Positions 912 through 21,513 of a stretch of 64,000 nucleotides of DNA are shown piece by piece (within the stretch, counting starts at the first letter, position 1; each line of letters begins with the position of its first letter). The DNA is from Planctomycetota bacterium (lineage in GTDB: Bacteria > Planctomycetota > UBA1135 > UBA2386): NCBI GenBank assembly GCA_965223545.1, contig OZ245006.1, positions 1,856,001 through 1,920,000 of the forward strand, written 5' to 3'. The notes under the pieces were generated by a model. It saw only the letters and a list, made by a program, of their open reading frames with translations. It did not search any database and had not been told where the DNA came from. The position numbers and the translations under genes were made by a program.

Positions 912-1614
912 CCTGCGCACCGCCACCCCGCAGCCGCAACGCGGCCAATGGGTGGAACGCGCCATCCGCGAAGCTGTAGTAGTGGGCATCGCCCACCACC
1001 ACGTGGTCGAGCAGCTCGATGCCCAAGAGCTCACCCGCCGCGCGCAGGCGCTCGGTGACGCGGCGATCGTCTTCGCTCGGCTGCGGATCCCCGCTGGGGT
1101 GGTTGTGCGCCAGGACCACCGCGGCGGCGCCGGCGCGGACCGCTCGGCCGAAGACCTCGCGCGGATGCACCGGTGCGGACGACAGGCCGCCAGTGCTGAC
1201 CACGGCCATGCCCAGGACCCGGTGGCGCGCGTCCAGCGTCGCGACCAAGAAGGCCTCCTGTGCCATCGCACGGGTGTGCTCCCGCACCAGCCGGGCGATG
1301 TCCCGGCCATCCCGGACCGCGGTCCCGATCCGCATCCGCGCGGCACTCAGCCGCCGTGCCAAGCCGAACGCGGCGACCAGCGCAGCGGCGCGCACCTCGC
1401 CGATCCCCGCACAGCGGCCCAGCTCGCGGACGTCGGCGCGGGCCAACGAAGCCAGCCCGCCAAATGTCCCGAGCAGTCGCTCCGCCAGCTGTTGGACCCC
1501 CTCACCCCGCCGGCCTGTGCGGAGCAGCACGGCCAGGCACTCGGTGTCCGAGAGCTGCTGCTCGCCGAACAGCAGCATCCGCTCTCGCGGCCCGGTTTGC
1601 ATCGGTCGTCGCAT
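874..1614 (-). CDS. radC: RadC/JAB (UPF0758) family protein
   Basis: PRERML..LSDTECLAVLLRTG N-terminus, HhH motif GIGEVRA, JAB motif HNHPSGDPQPSEDD, LLDHVVVG; ATG at 1614 or 1602. Confidence 0.92.
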   Translation of the reverse strand: MRRPMQTGPRERMLLFGEQQLSDTECLAVLLRTGRRGEGVQQLAERLLGTFGGLASLARADVRELGRCAGIGEVRAAALVAAFGLARRLSAARMRIGTAVRDGRDIARLVREHTRAMAQEAFLVATLDARHRVLGMAVVSTGGLSSAPVHPREVFGRAVRAGAAAVVLAHNHPSGDPQPSEDDRRVTERLRAAGELLGIELLDHVVVGDAHYYSFADGAFHPLAALRLRGGGAQVTAPRSRSPGSP

Positions 1615-1795
1615 TTGGCGGGGGGTCCTCCACCGTGTTGTGGCGTGCGGGCCCGTGCCGGTGACGCATGCACGGCAATTCCACTCAGGCCGCGGCGACA
1701 GATCGGCCCGCCGCGGGTACACCAGAGGGCACGGGCGCCGGCCGCCGGCCGGGCCTCCCCGATCCCCTTGAAGCGCCAGCCGCGCTTTTTTCGCA

Positions 1796-2722
1796 ATGCA
1801 CTCCAACTACCGTTTCGCCCTCGCGCTGGTCGCGAGCCTCACCCCGTCGCTCGCCGCGCAAGACGCCGCGACCGCTACCGAAGCGCACCTGCTGCGCCAC
1901 ACGTTCAAGGAGGGCGCGACCGCGCACTTCTCGGTCACCAACAACGCCAGCATGCTGATGGAGGCCGGCGGGCAGGAGATGGAGATGACGACGGTCATGC
2001 AGACCTTCTACACGCTGAACGTCGTCAGCGTCGGCGAAGACGGCAACGCCCGCGTCGAGCAGACGTGCTTTCGCGTCAAGGGCTCCTTCGAGCACCCGAT
2101 GATGGGCTCGCTGGCGTTCGACAGCGACGACGAGGAGTCGGACGCGGGCCCGATGGAGCAGATGCTGGACCTGGTCGGCAGCAAGATGAGCGCCACCATC
2201 GACCCGCGCGGCCAGACCAGCGACGTCGAGGTGCCCGGCTTCGTCGAGAACCTCGGCGCCGGCGACGTGTCCCAGACCCTCGCCCGCCTGTTCCCCACGT
2301 TCCCGGAAGAGCCGATCGAGATCGGCGCCACCTGGAAGGTCGACAGCGAGCAGCGCATGGGGCAGATGGGTGCGGTCAGCATGCAGACCACCAACAAGCT
2401 GACCGCCGTCGACGGCAACGCCATCACCATCGAGCAGCAGATCGCGGGCTCCACCGATGCGGAGAGCGAGTTCCAGATGACGACCAACAAGGGCGTCGGC
2501 ACCATCCAGCTGGAGCGCTTCGAGCTGCTGCCGACCGTGGCGGAAGCCGAGCTCGAGCTCGAGTTCGACTCGATGATGGCCGGCGGTCAGGTGCACACCA
2601 AGGTGTCGGTCGCGGCGTGCGAGCCGCCGGCGGCAAAGGAAGCCGAGAGCACCGGCGAGGAGAAGCCGGCCACGGACGCCGGTAACACGCCGGACAAGAC
2701 CGGCGGCGGCGACGACCGCTGA
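1796..2722 (+). CDS. Secreted hypothetical protein (DUF6263-like)
   Basis: Signal peptide ending SLAA-Q; beta-rich body with FPEEPIEIGATWK motif; strong GC3 codon bias. Confidence 0.65.
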   Translation: MHSNYRFALALVASLTPSLAAQDAATATEAHLLRHTFKEGATAHFSVTNNASMLMEAGGQEMEMTTVMQTFYTLNVVSVGEDGNARVEQTCFRVKGSFEHPMMGSLAFDSDDEESDAGPMEQMLDLVGSKMSATIDPRGQTSDVEVPGFVENLGAGDVSQTLARLFPTFPEEPIEIGATWKVDSEQRMGQMGAVSMQTTNKLTAVDGNAITIEQQIAGSTDAESEFQMTTNKGVGTIQLERFELLPTVAEAELELEFDSMMAGGQVHTKVSVAACEPPAAKEAESTGEEKPATDAGNTPDKTGGGDDR

Positions 2723-15003: not shown

Positions 15004-16338
15004 GTGAAGCAAGCGGACAACCACGTCGTGGTGAAGTACTTCGACCTGATCGACGAGTTCATCAAGATCCGCAGCTGCTCGGAAGACGTGCTCAGTGAGC
15101 TGGCCCGCTCGCCGGTGCACAACAAGGCCAGCTACCGCCGCCGTATTGTCGAGGTCTGCGTCCCGGACTTCGAGACGGAAATCCTCCACGCGCTGGAGAA
15201 GCTCGACGAGGAGTACGACGCCGAGATCGTCGAGGAGCTGCTCTACCAGATCTGCATCGACGTCAACCCGGCCCTGGAGATCCACCAGGTCAACCTACCG
15301 ACCAATCCGGATAGCGAGGCCGGGGACGTCCTGCCACGGGAAGGCCAGCGCGACCGGCAGCAGCTGTTTCGCAAGGTGATGGGTCTGGAGCGGACGCTGC
15401 GCGGACAGATCGTCGGCCAGGACGAGGCGATCTCGACCTTCGTGCGCGCGATCAAGAAGGCGGCGGTCGGCCTCAAGCCACCGACGACTCCAGTGGGCAC
15501 GTTCTTCTTGGTCGGGCGCACCGGCACCGGCAAGACCGAGCTCGCCAAGGCAATCGCGCGCACGCTCTACGACGATCCGGGCCGGATGGTGCGCATCGAC
15601 TGCTCGGAGTACGCCCTGCCGCACGAGTACGCCAAGCTGATCGGTTCGCCGCCGGGCTACATCGGTCACAGCGAGGGCGGCTTCCTCACCGAGGCAGTGC
15701 GCAAGAAGAAGAACTGCGTCGTGTTGTTCGACGAGATCGAGAAGGCGCACCCCAAGGTGCACAATCTGCTGCTGCAGCTGCTCGACGAGGGCATCCTCAC
15801 CGACAGCAAAGGGCAAGTGGTGTCCTTCGCCAAGACGTTGGTCATCCTGACCAGCAACCTGGGCATCGAGAAGATCGACGCGATCCGCTCGCGAATGGGC
15901 TTCCGCCGCCCGGAAGACGCCGGCCTCGCCGGCACCGACCTGAAGACCGCGACCCTGGAAGCCTTCAAGGAGGCCTTCCGCCCCGAGTTCGTCAACCGCA
16001 TCGACGAGCTCGTCGTGTTCAACCCGCTCGATCTCAAGGTGTGCGCGCGCATCGCCCAACGCATGCTGCGCGACGTCGCCGAGCTGCTGTCGCGGCACGG
16101 CATCAAAGTCGACTTCTCCCCCGGCGTGCGTCACGCGTTGTCGCGCGAGGGTTTCTCGGAGGAGTACGGCGCGCGCGAGCTGCGGCGGCTGGTCAAGCGG
16201 CGCATCGAAGACCCACTGACCGAGTTGATCCTGTCGGACTCGCTGGGCGTGGGTGCCCGGCTGTCGGTGCGCATCAAGAGCGGCACGCCGCAGATCGCCG
16301 TGGTCGAGAACGGCCGCCCGGCGATGCAGTCGGTCTAA
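15004..16338 (+). CDS. ClpC/ClpB NBD2-like single-domain AAA+ ATPase
   Basis: IVGQDEAI, GRTGTGKTEL, LIGSPPGYIG, VLFDEIEKAH, MGF loop, FRPEFVNRID, YGARELRR. Confidence 0.88.
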   Translation: MKQADNHVVVKYFDLIDEFIKIRSCSEDVLSELARSPVHNKASYRRRIVEVCVPDFETEILHALEKLDEEYDAEIVEELLYQICIDVNPALEIHQVNLPTNPDSEAGDVLPREGQRDRQQLFRKVMGLERTLRGQIVGQDEAISTFVRAIKKAAVGLKPPTTPVGTFFLVGRTGTGKTELAKAIARTLYDDPGRMVRIDCSEYALPHEYAKLIGSPPGYIGHSEGGFLTEAVRKKKNCVVLFDEIEKAHPKVHNLLLQLLDEGILTDSKGQVVSFAKTLVILTSNLGIEKIDAIRSRMGFRRPEDAGLAGTDLKTATLEAFKEAFRPEFVNRIDELVVFNPLDLKVCARIAQRMLRDVAELLSRHGIKVDFSPGVRHALSREGFSEEYGARELRRLVKRRIEDPLTELILSDSLGVGARLSVRIKSGTPQIAVVENGRPAMQSV

Positions 16339-16429
16339 ACAGCGATCGCAACGCGGAGTCGGGCACCTCGCCCGAATGCGGTGGCGCCCACCTATCGCGC
16401 GCGCAGGCCGGCGGTAGGCTGTAGCGGCG

Positions 16430-16978
16430 ATGAACCTCGCCGTCCTCGTCTCCGGCGCCGCGGCCGCCGCGGTGGCTGCGCTGTGCCTGGCACCGCAGCA
16501 GGACCCCGTCACGCCGACCTCATCCGACCCTGCCGTCGGCACACCGCGCGTCGCGACGATCACCGCGAACCCCGGTGGCGGTCAAACCGACGCCGCCCCC
16601 CGCCTACCACCGGAGCTGCACCTCCCGCTGCCGCCGCATGCACGCATCGCGCTGCGCCTGCCGCGAGGGTTGCGTTCCGGCCTGCGCTGTCCGGACGGCA
16701 GCTTTTTGCCCCTGCTCAACGGAGTGCCGCACGCCAGCCCGATCCATCGGTCGCCGCACGACGGCCCGCTGCCGCCAGTCGTGGCCAGGCGGACCGACGC
16801 CGATGGCGATGACTGGTACGAGCACGCGGACGGCTCGCTGACCACGACGCGCTGGGTCGACGTCGAAGTCGGCGGCGTGGTGCGCCCAGACGTCGTCACC
16901 AGCCACCACGCGCCGGTTGACGCGCACGCGCGACCGCTGCCCTCCTCCAAAATCCCGGCGCCGACCACCCAACGATGA
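16430..16978 (+). CDS. Hypothetical exported protein
   Basis: Hydrophobic N-terminus; CPDGSFLPLLNGV and WYEHADGS; stop overlaps next ATG (ATGA). Confidence 0.6.
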   Translation: MNLAVLVSGAAAAAVAALCLAPQQDPVTPTSSDPAVGTPRVATITANPGGGQTDAAPRLPPELHLPLPPHARIALRLPRGLRSGLRCPDGSFLPLLNGVPHASPIHRSPHDGPLPPVVARRTDADGDDWYEHADGSLTTTRWVDVEVGGVVRPDVVTSHHAPVDAHARPLPSSKIPAPTTQR

Positions 16979-18156
16979 TCCACACCCGACCGGTCATGGC
17001 CGCCCTGCTGCTCGCGGGCACCGTCTTCGCTCAGTCGACCTACGACGAGGTCGTGCGCAGCAACGAACCCTGGGTGGTCTTCGCCTCCGCCACCAGCACC
17101 GCCACCGGGCTTCCCTACAACTACGACGCGGTCAACCCTCCGGAGTACTCGGCCGGGACGCTGGGCAGTCCGGTCGGTGTACCGGCGAACACCTGGAGCT
17201 GGCGGATCATCCCGGGCTCTGCGAACTTCCGCGCCGGCGTCCGGCGCGTCGCTGGCTTCCGCCACTCACAGGTCATGTCGGGCGAGACCCAGCCGGCCAA
17301 CTACGGCGGCGCTTACGAAGCCGAGACGGTTCTGGCCGGCGTCGTCGCCCGACCGTCGGCGCCCGCCGGGGCCCGCAACCCGGACTGGAGCAAAGTGCTG
17401 GTGCGGATCCCCGCGCTGGCCGCGGCGGGAGCCCCCTCGCAGCTGTACCGCGTGACCCGCACGCTGGCGTCGCCGATCGCGGTGTCCAGCAGCCCGGGGG
17501 CGAGCGGCACCATCGACCTGGCGCTCGCCGTCAAGTTCAACGGGGGCGAGAGCAAGTGGATCGACGGAGCGCAGGGATTCGCCGCCACTTGGTGGGACGG
17601 CCCGACGCCATGGAACACGAGCGGCTTCTACTACCCGGGTACGAACACCACGACGTTCAACACGGACCCGCGCTTCGTGCTCTACCTGAACTACCTCGAG
17701 GCGGAGCCGGCGATCGCCCTGCACTCGGACTGGGGTCACTGGCAGAGCACCGGCGCGGGGGGCTTGCCCGGGCCGATCCTCGGCCACTCGATCGGCACCT
17801 ACTTCGGCAATCTGGCGAGCACCGCCGGCAACCTCGGCGTCAGCGTGCGCGCCGGCAACTACCCCAACGGCATCGCGCTGGTGCTGCTCAACTTCGGCCC
17901 CTACTTCGCCGGCTCGTTCCAGTTCTTCGGTCAAACCCTCGAGCTCAACCCCACCGATCCGGTGCTGACGCTGTTGTTGGGTCTACCGGGCATCGGCCTG
18001 CTGCCACTCGACGGCGCCGGCAACACCGACGGTGCCAAGATCCCGATTCCGCAGAACGCCGCCTGGCTCGGCACGACGCTGGGCTTCGAGGCCTTCATCG
18101 CCGACCGGACCGGCCAGGTGCGGGCCAGCACGGGCTCGGCTTTCGTTCGCAACTGA
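16975..18156 (+). CDS. Secreted hypothetical protein with shared C-terminal domain
   Basis: Signal peptide ending VFA-Q; C-terminus IPIPQNAAWLGTTLGFEAFIAD. Confidence 0.75.
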   Translation: MIHTRPVMAALLLAGTVFAQSTYDEVVRSNEPWVVFASATSTATGLPYNYDAVNPPEYSAGTLGSPVGVPANTWSWRIIPGSANFRAGVRRVAGFRHSQVMSGETQPANYGGAYEAETVLAGVVARPSAPAGARNPDWSKVLVRIPALAAAGAPSQLYRVTRTLASPIAVSSSPGASGTIDLALAVKFNGGESKWIDGAQGFAATWWDGPTPWNTSGFYYPGTNTTTFNTDPRFVLYLNYLEAEPAIALHSDWGHWQSTGAGGLPGPILGHSIGTYFGNLASTAGNLGVSVRAGNYPNGIALVLLNFGPYFAGSFQFFGQTLELNPTDPVLTLLLGLPGIGLLPLDGAGNTDGAKIPIPQNAAWLGTTLGFEAFIADRTGQVRASTGSAFVRN

Positions 18157-18166
18157 TGGTGTCACG

Positions 18167-19288
18167 ATGCTGATGCGCACAACGCTCACGGCGACCGCCC
18201 TGGCCGCGACCATGGTCGCGCAAGGGCCGGCGTTCCAATGCAGCTCCAGGGTGCACTACTCCGCACTTTGGCAGCACCTCCACGCGCGCTACGACGCCGA
18301 CGGCGATGGCCGCATCAGCCGCGACGAGTACCCGCGCGGCGATGTGCGGTTCGCCAACTTCGACCGCAACGGGGACGGCGTGCTGAACGTCACCGACTTC
18401 CCGGCCGACCGGCAGTTCAACGCGTTCAGCCCATCGCTGGCGCGCATGGCGGACGCCGACGGGGACAATGCGGTCTCGCGGGGCGAGTGGTCGACGTTCT
18501 GCGACGCGATCGACGGCGACAGCGACGGCGAACCCGACCGGACCGGCCTGGCGGCGACGCTGCGCGGTTGGCCGCTGGACAGCGACAAGGACTGGAACCT
18601 CTTCCTGCTGGCGTTCGACCAGGACGAGAATGGCCGCTTCACCGCAGAGGATCTCGGCCACCTCTTCCACGACCTGGACGCCGACGGCGACGGCACCGTG
18701 GCCGAGGCCGAGATGCAACGGCACCGGCGGACGATGCAGCGGCCCGATGCACCGCTGCCGGCGGTTGGTGAGCCGGCGCCCGACTTCGAGCTGCCGATCG
18801 CCGGCGATCCGGCAAACACGGTCTCCCTGTCGAGCTTCGAGGGCGACCGCCCGGTCGCCTTGCTCTTCGGCTCCTACACTTGACCCCCGTTCCGCGAGTC
18901 AGCCGGTCGGCTGGCGCAGCTGCACGAGACCTACGGCGATCGCGTCGCGTTCTTGCTGGTCTACATTCGCGAAGCGCATGCCATCGACAGCGAGCTGCCG
19001 ATGGAGTTCGGCATGATCGAGGACCCGGTGACCGACCGCGGGCGGCACGCGCTGGCCGAACGCTGCACGACCGAACTCGGTCTGACCATGCCAGCGCTGG
19101 TCGACGGCATCGACGACGCGGTCAACCGCCGCTGGCACGCCTGGCCCGAGCGGCTCTACCTGATCAACGCAGACGGAACGGTCGCCTACGCCGGCGGGCC
19201 GGGTCCGTTCGAGTTCCACCCCGACGAGCTGGAGACCGCGATCCGCGCCGTGTTGGACCCGGAAGGCGCACCGAGCACCGGCGGCTGA
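18167..19288 (+). CDS. Secreted EF-hand / iodothyronine-deiodinase-like selenoprotein (Sec = TGA 18881-18883, residue 239 of 373)
   Basis: In-frame TGA in FGSYT*PPF; frame continues without stop to 19288 through VYIREAH, AWPERLYLI, YAGGPGPF; six DxDxDG-type loops. Confidence 0.9.
18894..18917 (+). promoter_or_regulatory. Putative bacterial SECIS hairpin
   Basis: GTCAGCC-GGTC-GGCTGGC stem-loop (18898-18915), G-initiated apical loop about 21 nt after the UGA. Confidence 0.7.
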
Positions 19289-19296
19289 TCCCGGCC

Positions 19297-21513
19297 CTAC
19301 CAGCCGAGATCGAGCCGCAGGGCGTGGCTGAGATCCCAGCGCGCCGCGGCGCCCGGGTCTTGGATCGCGGCCTGCGCGAAGACCGAAACCCCGGCCAACG
19401 CCGGCAGACTCGGCAACGGCAACGGAAACGAAGCCCCGCCCCCGGTTCCGGTCCCCGACAGAAAGCTCGCCGCCAGAGGCAGAACCGCGAGCTGGCCGCA
19501 CGCGAAGGTGGCCCGATTGCCGACCGCGCTGAGCAACAGCACCGCCGGTTGCCGGATCAGGCCGCTGCGCACCTCGAGCTCGTAGCTGCGACTCCCCAAC
19601 ACGGGCTCGCCGAAGCTGAGCAGAGCGGCGCTGCAACCGGCGGGCACGTAGCTCGCCGCGGCTGGCCGGTCCAGGAGCGAGAACAGGTCGGCCGTCGGCC
19701 GCGCCGCGTCGGGGCCGCCGCCGTAGACCAGGACTTGGCCGCGCCGAGCGTCGTGCACCATGGCGTGTCCCCCGCGCGGCGTCGCCAGCGGCGCCGCCCG
19801 CGTCCACGAAGCGCCGCCGAACTCCCAGGCGTCGGCGAGAGCGACGCCACCCGCGCGCCCTCCGACCAGCAGAACACGCCCGGTGCCGGGGTCGAACGCC
19901 ATCGCGTGGCCACTGCGCGCGGGCGGACTGCCGGCGACCGCGATTCCCCGCCACGCGACTCCATCCCACTCGAGAGTATCCGCGCGTTCGAACCCGGCGG
20001 CATCGATGCCACCGAACAGAACAACCCGCGCGCGGGACGGATCATACGCGACCGCATGTCCCCGGCGCGCTGGCATGCTCGCCGGCGCGACGGACCAAGC
20101 CGTGCCGTCGTACGACCAGGTGTCGCCCAACACCCCGCCCGAGCTCTCGCCTCCGGCCAGCAAGACACGGCCGCGGGCGGCGTCGTAGACCATCGCCGCG
20201 CCATGCCGCGCGGCGGGCGCGGACGCGGCACTCTGCTGCCACGCCACTCCGTCCCACTCCCAGGTGTCGGCCAGCGCCGCCCCGCTGGGGAGCCGACCGC
20301 CGAAGAGCACGGCGCGACCGCGCCGTGCGTCGAATGCCAGCGCACTGCCCCGTCGCGCCGACGGGCCGGACGGTGTCGCACGCCACGCGGCACCGTTCCA
20401 CAGCCATGCGACCGCCTGCTCGGGCCGCCCGTTGCCGCCGCCCACCAGCAGGGTCTCACCGCGCTTGGCATCGAAAAGCATGGCGTGCCCGTCGCGAACG
20501 TTGGGCGTGAAATCGCGTGGCGCGAAGCCGCTGCCGTCGCCCACCCAAGTGTGCGCGGCATGCACCGGCTGCACCTTGTGCACCGTGCTCGTGCCGCCAT
20601 GTATCACGACGCGCCGCAGATCGGCGTCGTAGAAGCCAACGTGGTCGACCAACGCGAAGCCCGTGCCGATTGCCGGTTGCCAAGTGGCGCCGTCCCATTC
20701 CCAAGCATCGGCGAGACCCGTCGAGCCCGCGCGGCCGCCGACCATCAGCGTGCGCCCCCGACCCGGGTCATGGACCAGAACGTGGCCACAGCGGCCGGCC
20801 GGCGCCCCCTGCCCCATCGCCTGCCACTGCTGCCCATCGAACTCCCACGTGTCCGCGAAGAACGAGGTGCTCTGACCGGTCGCGCAACCGCCGAACAGTA
20901 CGAGTCGCCCGCGGGCTCGATCGAGCACCATCGCTGCATCGGTCCTCGGCGGCGGAGCAACGGGCGTCGTCAATCGGGCCCACTGCGCACCGTCCCACAA
21001 CCACGTGTCCCCGAGCTCTCCCAGCCAACCGCGACCGCCGAACAGCAACACGCCCCTGCCGAGCGGATCGGCGGCCATCGCATGCCCCGCGCGCGACGGC
21101 GGCCGCACGCCCGGACCGTGGACGCGCCACGCGCCATCGGTGCATTCCCACGTATCGTCGAGCAAGAGCTGTCCGTCACTGCCGCCGAACACGACAACAC
21201 TCCTGCGGGCCGCGTCCCAGGCCGCGCCCGCACCAACGCGCGGCGGCGGTTCCACGAACGCGCCCGGCCCCGAGGCACGCCATGCGTCGCCGTTCCACTC
21301 CACGGCTCCGGCGACGGCGGAAGCAAAGCCGGGCGCCGCCCCACCGACCATGACACCTCGGCCTCTCGCGACGTCGAACGCCGCACACGCTCCGGCGCGC
21401 AGCACTGGCTGTTGCAGGGCCTTCCACCGCGCCGACTGACCGGCGGCAAGACCGGCGAGGACGCACACACCGACCGCGACCAACACGCTCTGCTCTCGCT
21501 TCGGTTCACTCAT
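19297..21513 (-). CDS. Secreted Kelch-repeat protein with shared C-terminal domain
   Basis: About 12 repeats of P.AR.GHAM.YD..RGRVLLFGG...DTWEWDG..W; signal peptide; GGAG upstream of ATG 21513. Confidence 0.88.
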   Translation of the reverse strand: MSEPKREQSVLVAVGVCVLAGLAAGQSARWKALQQPVLRAGACAAFDVARGRGVMVGGAAPGFASAVAGAVEWNGDAWRASGPGAFVEPPPRVGAGAAWDAARRSVVVFGGSDGQLLLDDTWECTDGAWRVHGPGVRPPSRAGHAMAADPLGRGVLLFGGRGWLGELGDTWLWDGAQWARLTTPVAPPPRTDAAMVLDRARGRLVLFGGCATGQSTSFFADTWEFDGQQWQAMGQGAPAGRCGHVLVHDPGRGRTLMVGGRAGSTGLADAWEWDGATWQPAIGTGFALVDHVGFYDADLRRVVIHGGTSTVHKVQPVHAAHTWVGDGSGFAPRDFTPNVRDGHAMLFDAKRGETLLVGGGNGRPEQAVAWLWNGAAWRATPSGPSARRGSALAFDARRGRAVLFGGRLPSGAALADTWEWDGVAWQQSAASAPAARHGAAMVYDAARGRVLLAGGESSGGVLGDTWSYDGTAWSVAPASMPARRGHAVAYDPSRARVVLFGGIDAAGFERADTLEWDGVAWRGIAVAGSPPARSGHAMAFDPGTGRVLLVGGRAGGVALADAWEFGGASWTRAAPLATPRGGHAMVHDARRGQVLVYGGGPDAARPTADLFSLLDRPAAASYVPAGCSAALLSFGEPVLGSRSYELEVRSGLIRQPAVLLLSAVGNRATFACGQLAVLPLAASFLSGTGTGGGASFPLPLPSLPALAGVSVFAQAAIQDPGAAARWDLSHALRLDLGW

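Follow-up and report, generated by a model that had tools for sequence, protein, structure and literature searches.

Here, we propose that positions 18167-19288 of the window (the whole 64,000-nucleotide stretch of DNA analysed) almost certainly form one selenoprotein gene, read through an in-frame UGA, whose product would be exported and would join calcium-binding loops to a deiodinase-related redox domain. We draw a distinction between this reading of the gene and the chemistry of its product, for which we tentatively favour a peroxidase-type cycle in the cell envelope. The features on which the argument turns are as follows.

18167-19288 (+): whole gene, 373 aa with the TGA read as selenocysteine; M3 (18173) is an alternative start
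18167-18220 (+): probable Sec-pathway signal peptide, with cleavage likely between A18 and Q19
18239-18241 (+): Cys25, in a C-x-x-R-V motif found in 14/15 aligned subclade sequences
18293-18712 (+): EF-hand domain, matched by Pfam EF-hand families over cut-off; loops start at D43 (18293), D66 (18362), D96 (18452), D116 (18512), D151 (18617) and D171 (18677)
18752-19255 (+): deiodinase-like thioredoxin-fold domain, residues about 196-363, by PF00837 and structure match
18881-18883 (+): in-frame TGA, selenocysteine 239, aligned with the Dio2/Dio3 Sec/Cys and the GPx peroxidatic Cys
18898-18915 (+): SECIS-like hairpin with a 7-bp stem and a GGUC loop (18905-18908), 21 nt after the TGA
18962-18979 (+): YIREAH, in which Tyr266, Glu269 and His271 correspond to Dio3 Tyr197, Glu200 and His202
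19064-19066 (+): Cys300 in helix alphaD, a candidate resolving cysteine, aligned with the bacterial GPx helix Cys
19142-19153 (+): WPER loop, with Pro327 as in Dio1 and Glu328-Arg329 as in all Dio isoforms
G000:C1:1264004-1266329 (-), source genome: adjacent selA and selD, profile matches over curated cut-offs
C1:7664772-7666646 (+) and C1:7952888-7952986, source genome: selB and tRNA-Sec, away from selA/selD
G000:C1:6712913-6713950 (+), source genome: EF-hand/deiodinase-like paralog of about 370 aa (loci L007/L037/L114)

Selenocysteine at codon 239

Translation of the frame gives a single internal TGA, at codon 239 directly after FGSYT, and closure at a TGA at 19286-19288; between them the motifs FGSYT-U-PPF, YIREAH, ERLY and YAGGPGP follow in order. 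The first-pass annotation had read this as one frame that absorbs the ORF starting at 18953, and had suggested a search of the Pfam deiodinase family with the TGA translated as U. Such a search matches PF00837 across residue 239 (residues 201-358, E 1e-20, 74.5 bits against a gathering score of 27), and the alignment with mouse Dio3 also crosses the TGA (E 1.2e-14), with the cysteines that replace Sec in mouse Dio3 and Dio2 falling on residue 239; the single frame is thus upheld. The case for the gene rests on homology, because an open frame of at least 134 codons after an in-frame TGA is common in the source genome, which is 70% GC (21,576/135,032, or 16%). As that annotation had foreseen, standard annotation breaks the gene: the product in the protein collection (P0002) has 238 aa and ends at FGSYT. 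It had also raised an assembly error at 18881, and contigs from two sequencing runs, which cover the whole stretch with zero letter differences, carry no Cys codon there; the two runs were part of a single study, their contigs may be the very DNA that the stretch derives from, and the contigs of two other runs do not reach the TGA.

The source genome encodes the means of reading UGA as selenocysteine, with selA, selB and selD above curated cut-offs and a tRNA-Sec (selC), so that the full set of sel genes for which the first-pass annotation had proposed to look is present. An in-frame TGA also lies inside selD itself, in the motif GG-U-AAK. The paralog shares 45% identity, the same TGA and a near-identical hairpin, and is without Cys25. 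Among 35 distinct homologous loci (after removal of two duplicate rows), the codon in the motif column is TGA in 32 and Cys in three. At the protein level, 191 of 266 fetched homologs carry the motif, 130 with Cys, 54 ending exactly there and seven with other residues; the expectation that homologs would have Cys or Sec at this column was thereby borne out. Ser, Trp or Leu stands at the Sec column in P0003, P0017, P0025, P0124, P0156 and P0242, whose codons can be one base from TGA and which may be sequence errors or true losses.

The TGA form also tracks selA. All 41 related genomes (close relatives) have selA. Across 301 genomes of the same phylum, PF00837 is matched in 98, six of which were dropped from the count of TGA and selA because their matches were weak only (E above 1e-10), and selA in 219. 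The TGA form occurs in 82/301, and selA accompanies it in 80/82 against 219/301 overall, whereas 7/10 genomes with stop-free matches only are without selA, six of these seven having a Cys codon and one Glu at the Sec column. We treat this as a pattern and not as a probability, because kin are not independent. Two genomes (G132 and G151; loci L149 and L150) have the TGA form with no selA match; their assemblies are 90% and 92% complete, and incomplete assembly is the simplest reading.

The bacterial SECIS model calls for a loop of 3-9 nt containing G, a stem of 4-16 bp, a spacing of 16-37 nt and an energy of -7.5 kcal/mol or lower, as given in a recent review (PMC13188914). The hairpin after the UGA, at -10.8 kcal/mol, lies within all of these limits. 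Its pairing is kept in 96% of cells in 18 related sequences, with 9 compensatory two-sided changes (0/500 shuffles), one of which forces Arg to Gln in three sequences; slid controls are 9-59% paired, and two of five covariation measures in these 18 sequences are not above shuffles. No hairpin within the energy limit was found in the three Cys-codon loci, and Rfam gave no match in the window. The hairpin supports selenocysteine and does not prove it, because the structure was drawn from the same sequences and because a model-conforming hairpin also follows 14.9% of 3000 TGAs picked at random. A genome-wide scan for a TGA with a GGUC hairpin gave 79 matches, among which only the two deiodinase-like genes looked gene-like by eye; the scan is no survey of the selenoproteome, because it missed selD.

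Might the TGA instead be a real stop, with the locus split into two genes, decayed into a pseudogene or misassembled? The frequency of model-conforming hairpins at random TGAs makes the hairpin alone weak, and 48-86 nt around the UGA fold no better than shuffles, which are the points in favour of a stop. A stop here would nevertheless cut the fold at its catalytic residue and leave the ORF from 18953 onward without the active-site helix, and it would have to explain why the paralog and 32 of the 35 distinct loci carry a TGA in that very column, why this TGA tracks selA and why it alternates with Cys among homologs. We regard a real stop as very improbable, and it is strongly supported, close to certainty, that SelB would read the hairpin after the UGA and insert Sec239.

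Architecture of the predicted protein

The first-pass annotation described a signal peptide, six calcium-binding loops and a Sec-containing thioredoxin fold in one protein, and this architecture is supported. At the N-terminus a hydrophobic stretch begins at residue 7 (KD11 1.7), and relatives have either an AQ-type site that aligns with this one or a Cys resembling that of a lipobox. The protein is probably exported. No 19-residue segment in its whole length exceeds KD 1.6 (maximum 0.99), and a membrane anchor is absent. An AlphaFold2 model of residues 20-373 has a pLDDT of 94.4 and a pTM of 0.91.

PF13499 matches the EF-hand domain at 44.3 bits against a cut-off of 30, and the domain modelled alone reaches a pLDDT of 92.5. 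All six of the loops that had been counted are there, but not all are DxDxDG loops: position 12 is Glu in the loops at D43, D96 and D171, Asp in those at D66 and D151, and Gly in that at D116, which is degenerate. Of the traits of calmodulin-type Ca2+ sensors, Glu12 is found in 3/6 loops, and solved EF-hand proteins are matched weakly (Z no higher than 6.2, Foldseek TM up to about 0.3). ESM Atlas matches for the N-terminal half are to unnamed EF-hand clusters only. HMM matches to XopAW, lanmodulin and transaldolase were rejected, being far below cut-off and reflecting the EF-hand loops only.

The enzyme had also been suggested to be possibly calcium-modulated. Relatives vary from 0 to 6 loops and one loop is degenerate here, and calcium regulation is unsupported, although the whole-chain pTM may be compatible with coupling between the domains and hence with such regulation. 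We consider it most likely that Ca2+ is bound constitutively by the EF-hand domain, which would stabilise or position the protein rather than act as a switch; the variable number of loops among relatives speaks for this.

Cys25 marks a subclade. In a quick tree the window protein falls within a group of 16 rows (SH-aLRT 99), each of them either a TGA form or a product cut short at the motif, and an N-(G/A)-F motif follows the second loop in 15/15 aligned members. Since no other cysteine of the N-terminal half is conserved across the clade, Cys25 is without an obvious structural partner in that half. The first 10-residue block has a pLDDT of 67 in the model of residues 20-373 and of 64 when the EF-hand domain is modelled alone, values that are uninformative on contact between Cys25 and the active site.

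The best structural match of the catalytic domain is mouse Dio3 (4tr4; Z 19.8, rmsd 3.1, 175 aligned), and 4tr3 and 9h48 take the top Foldseek ranks; AhpE (Z 18.4), Bcp (18.0), ResA (17.6) and DsbE (also 17.6) come after Dio3. Compared with the deiodinases, Ser236, Thr238, Tyr266, Glu269, His271, Arg293 and Arg329 are kept (74-87 of 88 homologs), including Tyr266 in 87/88, Glu269 in 87/88 and His271 in 86/88 aligned catalytic domains. The WPER loop retains its Pro in 87/88 and its Arg in 86/88 homologs. In Dio numbering the preserved positions are Ser167, Thr169, Tyr197, Glu200, His202, Arg225 and the Glu-Arg pair, a network to which two papers on Dio assign the anchoring of the omega-loop or a part in proton relay (PMC7506546, PMC9141512). 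Missing are the proximal Cys168, the distal Cys239, His219, Trp207 and Arg275; Met308, Pro287 and Glu276 align to Dio Cys239, His219 and Trp207, respectively, and the His219 equivalent is absent in 87/88 homologs. Cys300 is present in 67/88 homologs, with nine more having a Cys one column later.

The glutathione peroxidases (GPx) have the catalytic tetrad Sec/Cys-Gln-Trp-Asn. When the protein is aligned by profile with 12 GPx taken from related genomes (probability 96, E 4.5e-9, about 22% identity), U239 pairs with the peroxidatic Cys, C300 with the helix Cys and W326 with the Trp of the WNF loop. The protein has no match to PF00255 at E 0.1.

Candidate chemistry of Sec239

In light of this architecture, what might the protein do? 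The first-pass annotation had offered a reductive dehalogenase or a peroxidase, and the pattern of residues leans towards a cycle of the peroxidase type. The reading we favour over dehalogenation and over protein disulfide exchange, with a confidence that falls a little short of even, is that Sec239 and Cys300 carry out such a cycle in the envelope. The exported protein would be a two-electron reductase working beyond the cytoplasmic membrane. Its Sec239 selenolate, positioned by a Ser236/Thr238/Tyr266/Glu269/His271 network, would attack a small oxidant, for which an organic hydroperoxide or similar electrophile is the likeliest candidate; Cys300 would then resolve the oxidised selenium after local unfolding of helix alphaD, in the manner of thioredoxin-dependent 2-Cys glutathione peroxidases, and an envelope thiol system would re-reduce the enzyme. 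We infer both the Sec239-Cys300 bond and any substrate. This cycle is favoured because U239 and C300 align with the GPx peroxidatic and helix cysteines and because in poplar GPX5 the resolving Cys92 is likewise located in alphaD, Dio3 Cys239 lying further downstream (PMC7506546). That the next-best folds are AhpE, Bcp and ResA lends it further support.

Several observations stand against a peroxidase-type cycle. The GPx Gln and Asn positions are not kept, being Glu/Asp and Pro here. The YxxEAH network, which is specific to deiodinases, hardly varies among homologs, nor does Arg293, and Dio3 rather than a peroxidase has the nearest fold. Cys300 is missing at its column in 21/88 homologs, no reductant partner is encoded near the gene, and genomes with the family are not clearly without GPx (31/92 against 92/209, p 0.10; p 0.24 when restricted to selA genomes). 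The idea that the family replaces GPx, drawn from close relatives (6/9 against 3/12), was rejected, as it was not upheld in the 301 genomes, and in neither sample are kin independent; the source genome has no GPx at E 1e-15.

The resemblance to animal deiodinases suggests a true reductive dehalogenase, in which Sec239 would strip I or Br off a phenol or diaryl ether that carries halogen, with Cys300 or some external thiol regenerating it. In sequence and in structure alike Dio3 and Dio2 match best, the network from Ser167 to the Glu-Arg pair is kept, Thr125 is essential in DIO1 (PMC9141512), Pro327 and Pro345 match Dio1-type residues credited with a wider site, and Dio2, also without the proximal Cys, still turns over with DTT (PMC11592359). 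Yet the His219 equivalent is missing from nearly every homolog, Trp207 and Arg275 are absent here, no halogen-metabolism gene occurs among 51 neighbours scanned, and the paper that described the family itself expects a different function in bacteria (PMC1088965); a bacterial member with deiodinating activity was not found in the literature covered, which takes in few subscription papers. That Trp207, His219 and Arg275, which are implicated in thyronine binding or proton relay, are not kept counts in favour of the peroxidase-type cycle, and we consider dehalogenation rather unlikely.

A different use of the same fold would be a monothiol-type (U-P-P-F) envelope thiol-disulfide oxidoreductase, similar to TlpA, ResA or DsbE, whose substrate would be another protein docked onto the EF-hand domain. 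U239 takes the place of the first Cys in CxxC redoxins, the fold matches include ResA and DsbE, the near-invariant Pro327 occupies the place of the thioredoxin cis-proline, and members of the family are fused to TPR repeats and other modules. Against this, the motif is without a second Cys, the site is bordered, as it is in Dio, by an omega-loop containing YxxEAH, and there is no conserved partner gene. We regard it as an unlikely option. Least probable of these, and in our view a long shot, is a widespread, exported, Se-only reductive dehalogenase of natural iodo- or bromo-aromatics whose activity would be the one from which the thyroid deiodinases derive. In the subclade, Cys25 would be held by the EF-hand domain and would relay to Sec239/Cys300 in a Ca2+-dependent way; were that relay real, the enzyme would be calcium-gated.

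The neighbourhood offers no substrate clue, as Pfam assigns unrelated functions to the 51 neighbours. Over 21 loci no real neighbour family recurs in more than three (kinases; an M20 peptidase beside three short forms), and a cluster seen at 17 loci proved to be the antisense shadow of the deiodinase-like gene itself. Immediately upstream, two genes at window 16430-18156 (+), of 182 aa and 393 aa, have signal-peptide-like starts, overlap or abut, and end 10 nt before the deiodinase-like gene, with which they are possibly co-transcribed. The pair has no Pfam or NCBIfam match and is not seen beside the 20 other loci; no match to a sigma-70 promoter was found in 16300-19500.

Place among known families

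The first-pass annotation implied that the fusion was new, a suggestion that does not hold: a deiodinase-like fusion with the EF-hand family PF13499 was reported from GOS marine metagenomes in 2021 (PMC9402790, Fig. 2B), in a paper that also remarks on an extra conserved Cys of unclear role. By the legend and text of that paper, both have the same two domains in one Sec-containing frame; 12 of its 17 supplement files hold no mention of EF-hands that we could find. The wider group of deiodinase-like selenoproteins in bacteria, including its Cys homologs and its SECIS elements of the bacterial type, goes back further, to 2005 (PMC1088965), and is tabulated in a 2026 review with the motif UxxC (PMC13188914). 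With this family the gene shares PF00837, a UGA at the catalytic column, a bacterial SECIS and Cys-form homologs; it differs in having UPPF where the table has UxxC, and in adding a signal peptide and EF-hands. The gene is therefore an ordinary new member of an already described family and fusion. In the literature covered, again with few subscription papers, we found no characterisation of a bacterial member, no work joining deiodinase, EF-hand and Planctomycet, and none on NF038285.

That NCBIfam model, 'deiodinase family protein' (347 positions), covers an EF-hand-like N-terminal half and a catalytic domain, as here. The window protein scores 214.5 and the paralog 214.9, below its cut-off of 250, which is passed by 6/7 Cys-form homologs tested and by 0/4 Sec forms; NF038285 is an EF-hand Cys-form sister clade. 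Many Cys-form deiodinase-like domains (several in P0022-P0087) are preceded by TPR repeats to which they are fused; these proteins are about 440-560 aa long, and some are labelled Acidobacteria.

With Dio1-3 (4tr3/4tr4, 9h48) the protein shares the thioredoxin fold with the Dio insertion, S-x-T-U-P-P-F, YxxEAH, ERLY and GxGP. Unlike them it has no membrane anchor, Cys168, Cys239, His219, Trp207 or Arg275, and it has EF-hands, Cys300 and Cys25. With 2-Cys GPx of the poplar GPX5 type it has in common, by alignment, the catalytic position, the alphaD Cys and the Trp of the WNF loop, but only the Trp of the tetrad is kept, PF00255 is not matched and the Dio omega-loop is present. By their defining residues, then, it is a member of neither Dio1-3 nor GPx, though it may work like either.

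Other genes with an in-frame TGA came to light in the related genomes. In genome G012, locus L036 at about 1521-2030 (+) holds an exported redoxin-like frame with an in-frame TGA in WGTR-U-GPC (UxxC), which is probably another selenoprotein. Loci L026-L032 are weaker matches (36-41% identity over residues about 195-340) with one TGA and no EAH motif found, and likely belong to another redoxin selenoprotein family. Within the phylum, 11 GPx matches (G165, G177, G189, G202, G211, G223, G270, G283, G285, G290 and G291) contain one in-frame TGA and are probably Sec-GPx.

What our analysis adds to the described family is its prevalence in the phylum, the correspondence of Cys300 with GPx as a testable mechanism, and the Cys25 subclade. 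It also corrects a systematic mis-annotation, since 54 of the 266 fetched homologs, EF-hand proteins that end at the Sec codon, are truncated in this way, and the TGA form is present in 82 of the 301 genomes. As a soluble, single-chain bacterial relative of the deiodinases with natural Cys versions, the protein offers a practical test system for the function of the family and for the origin of deiodinase chemistry.
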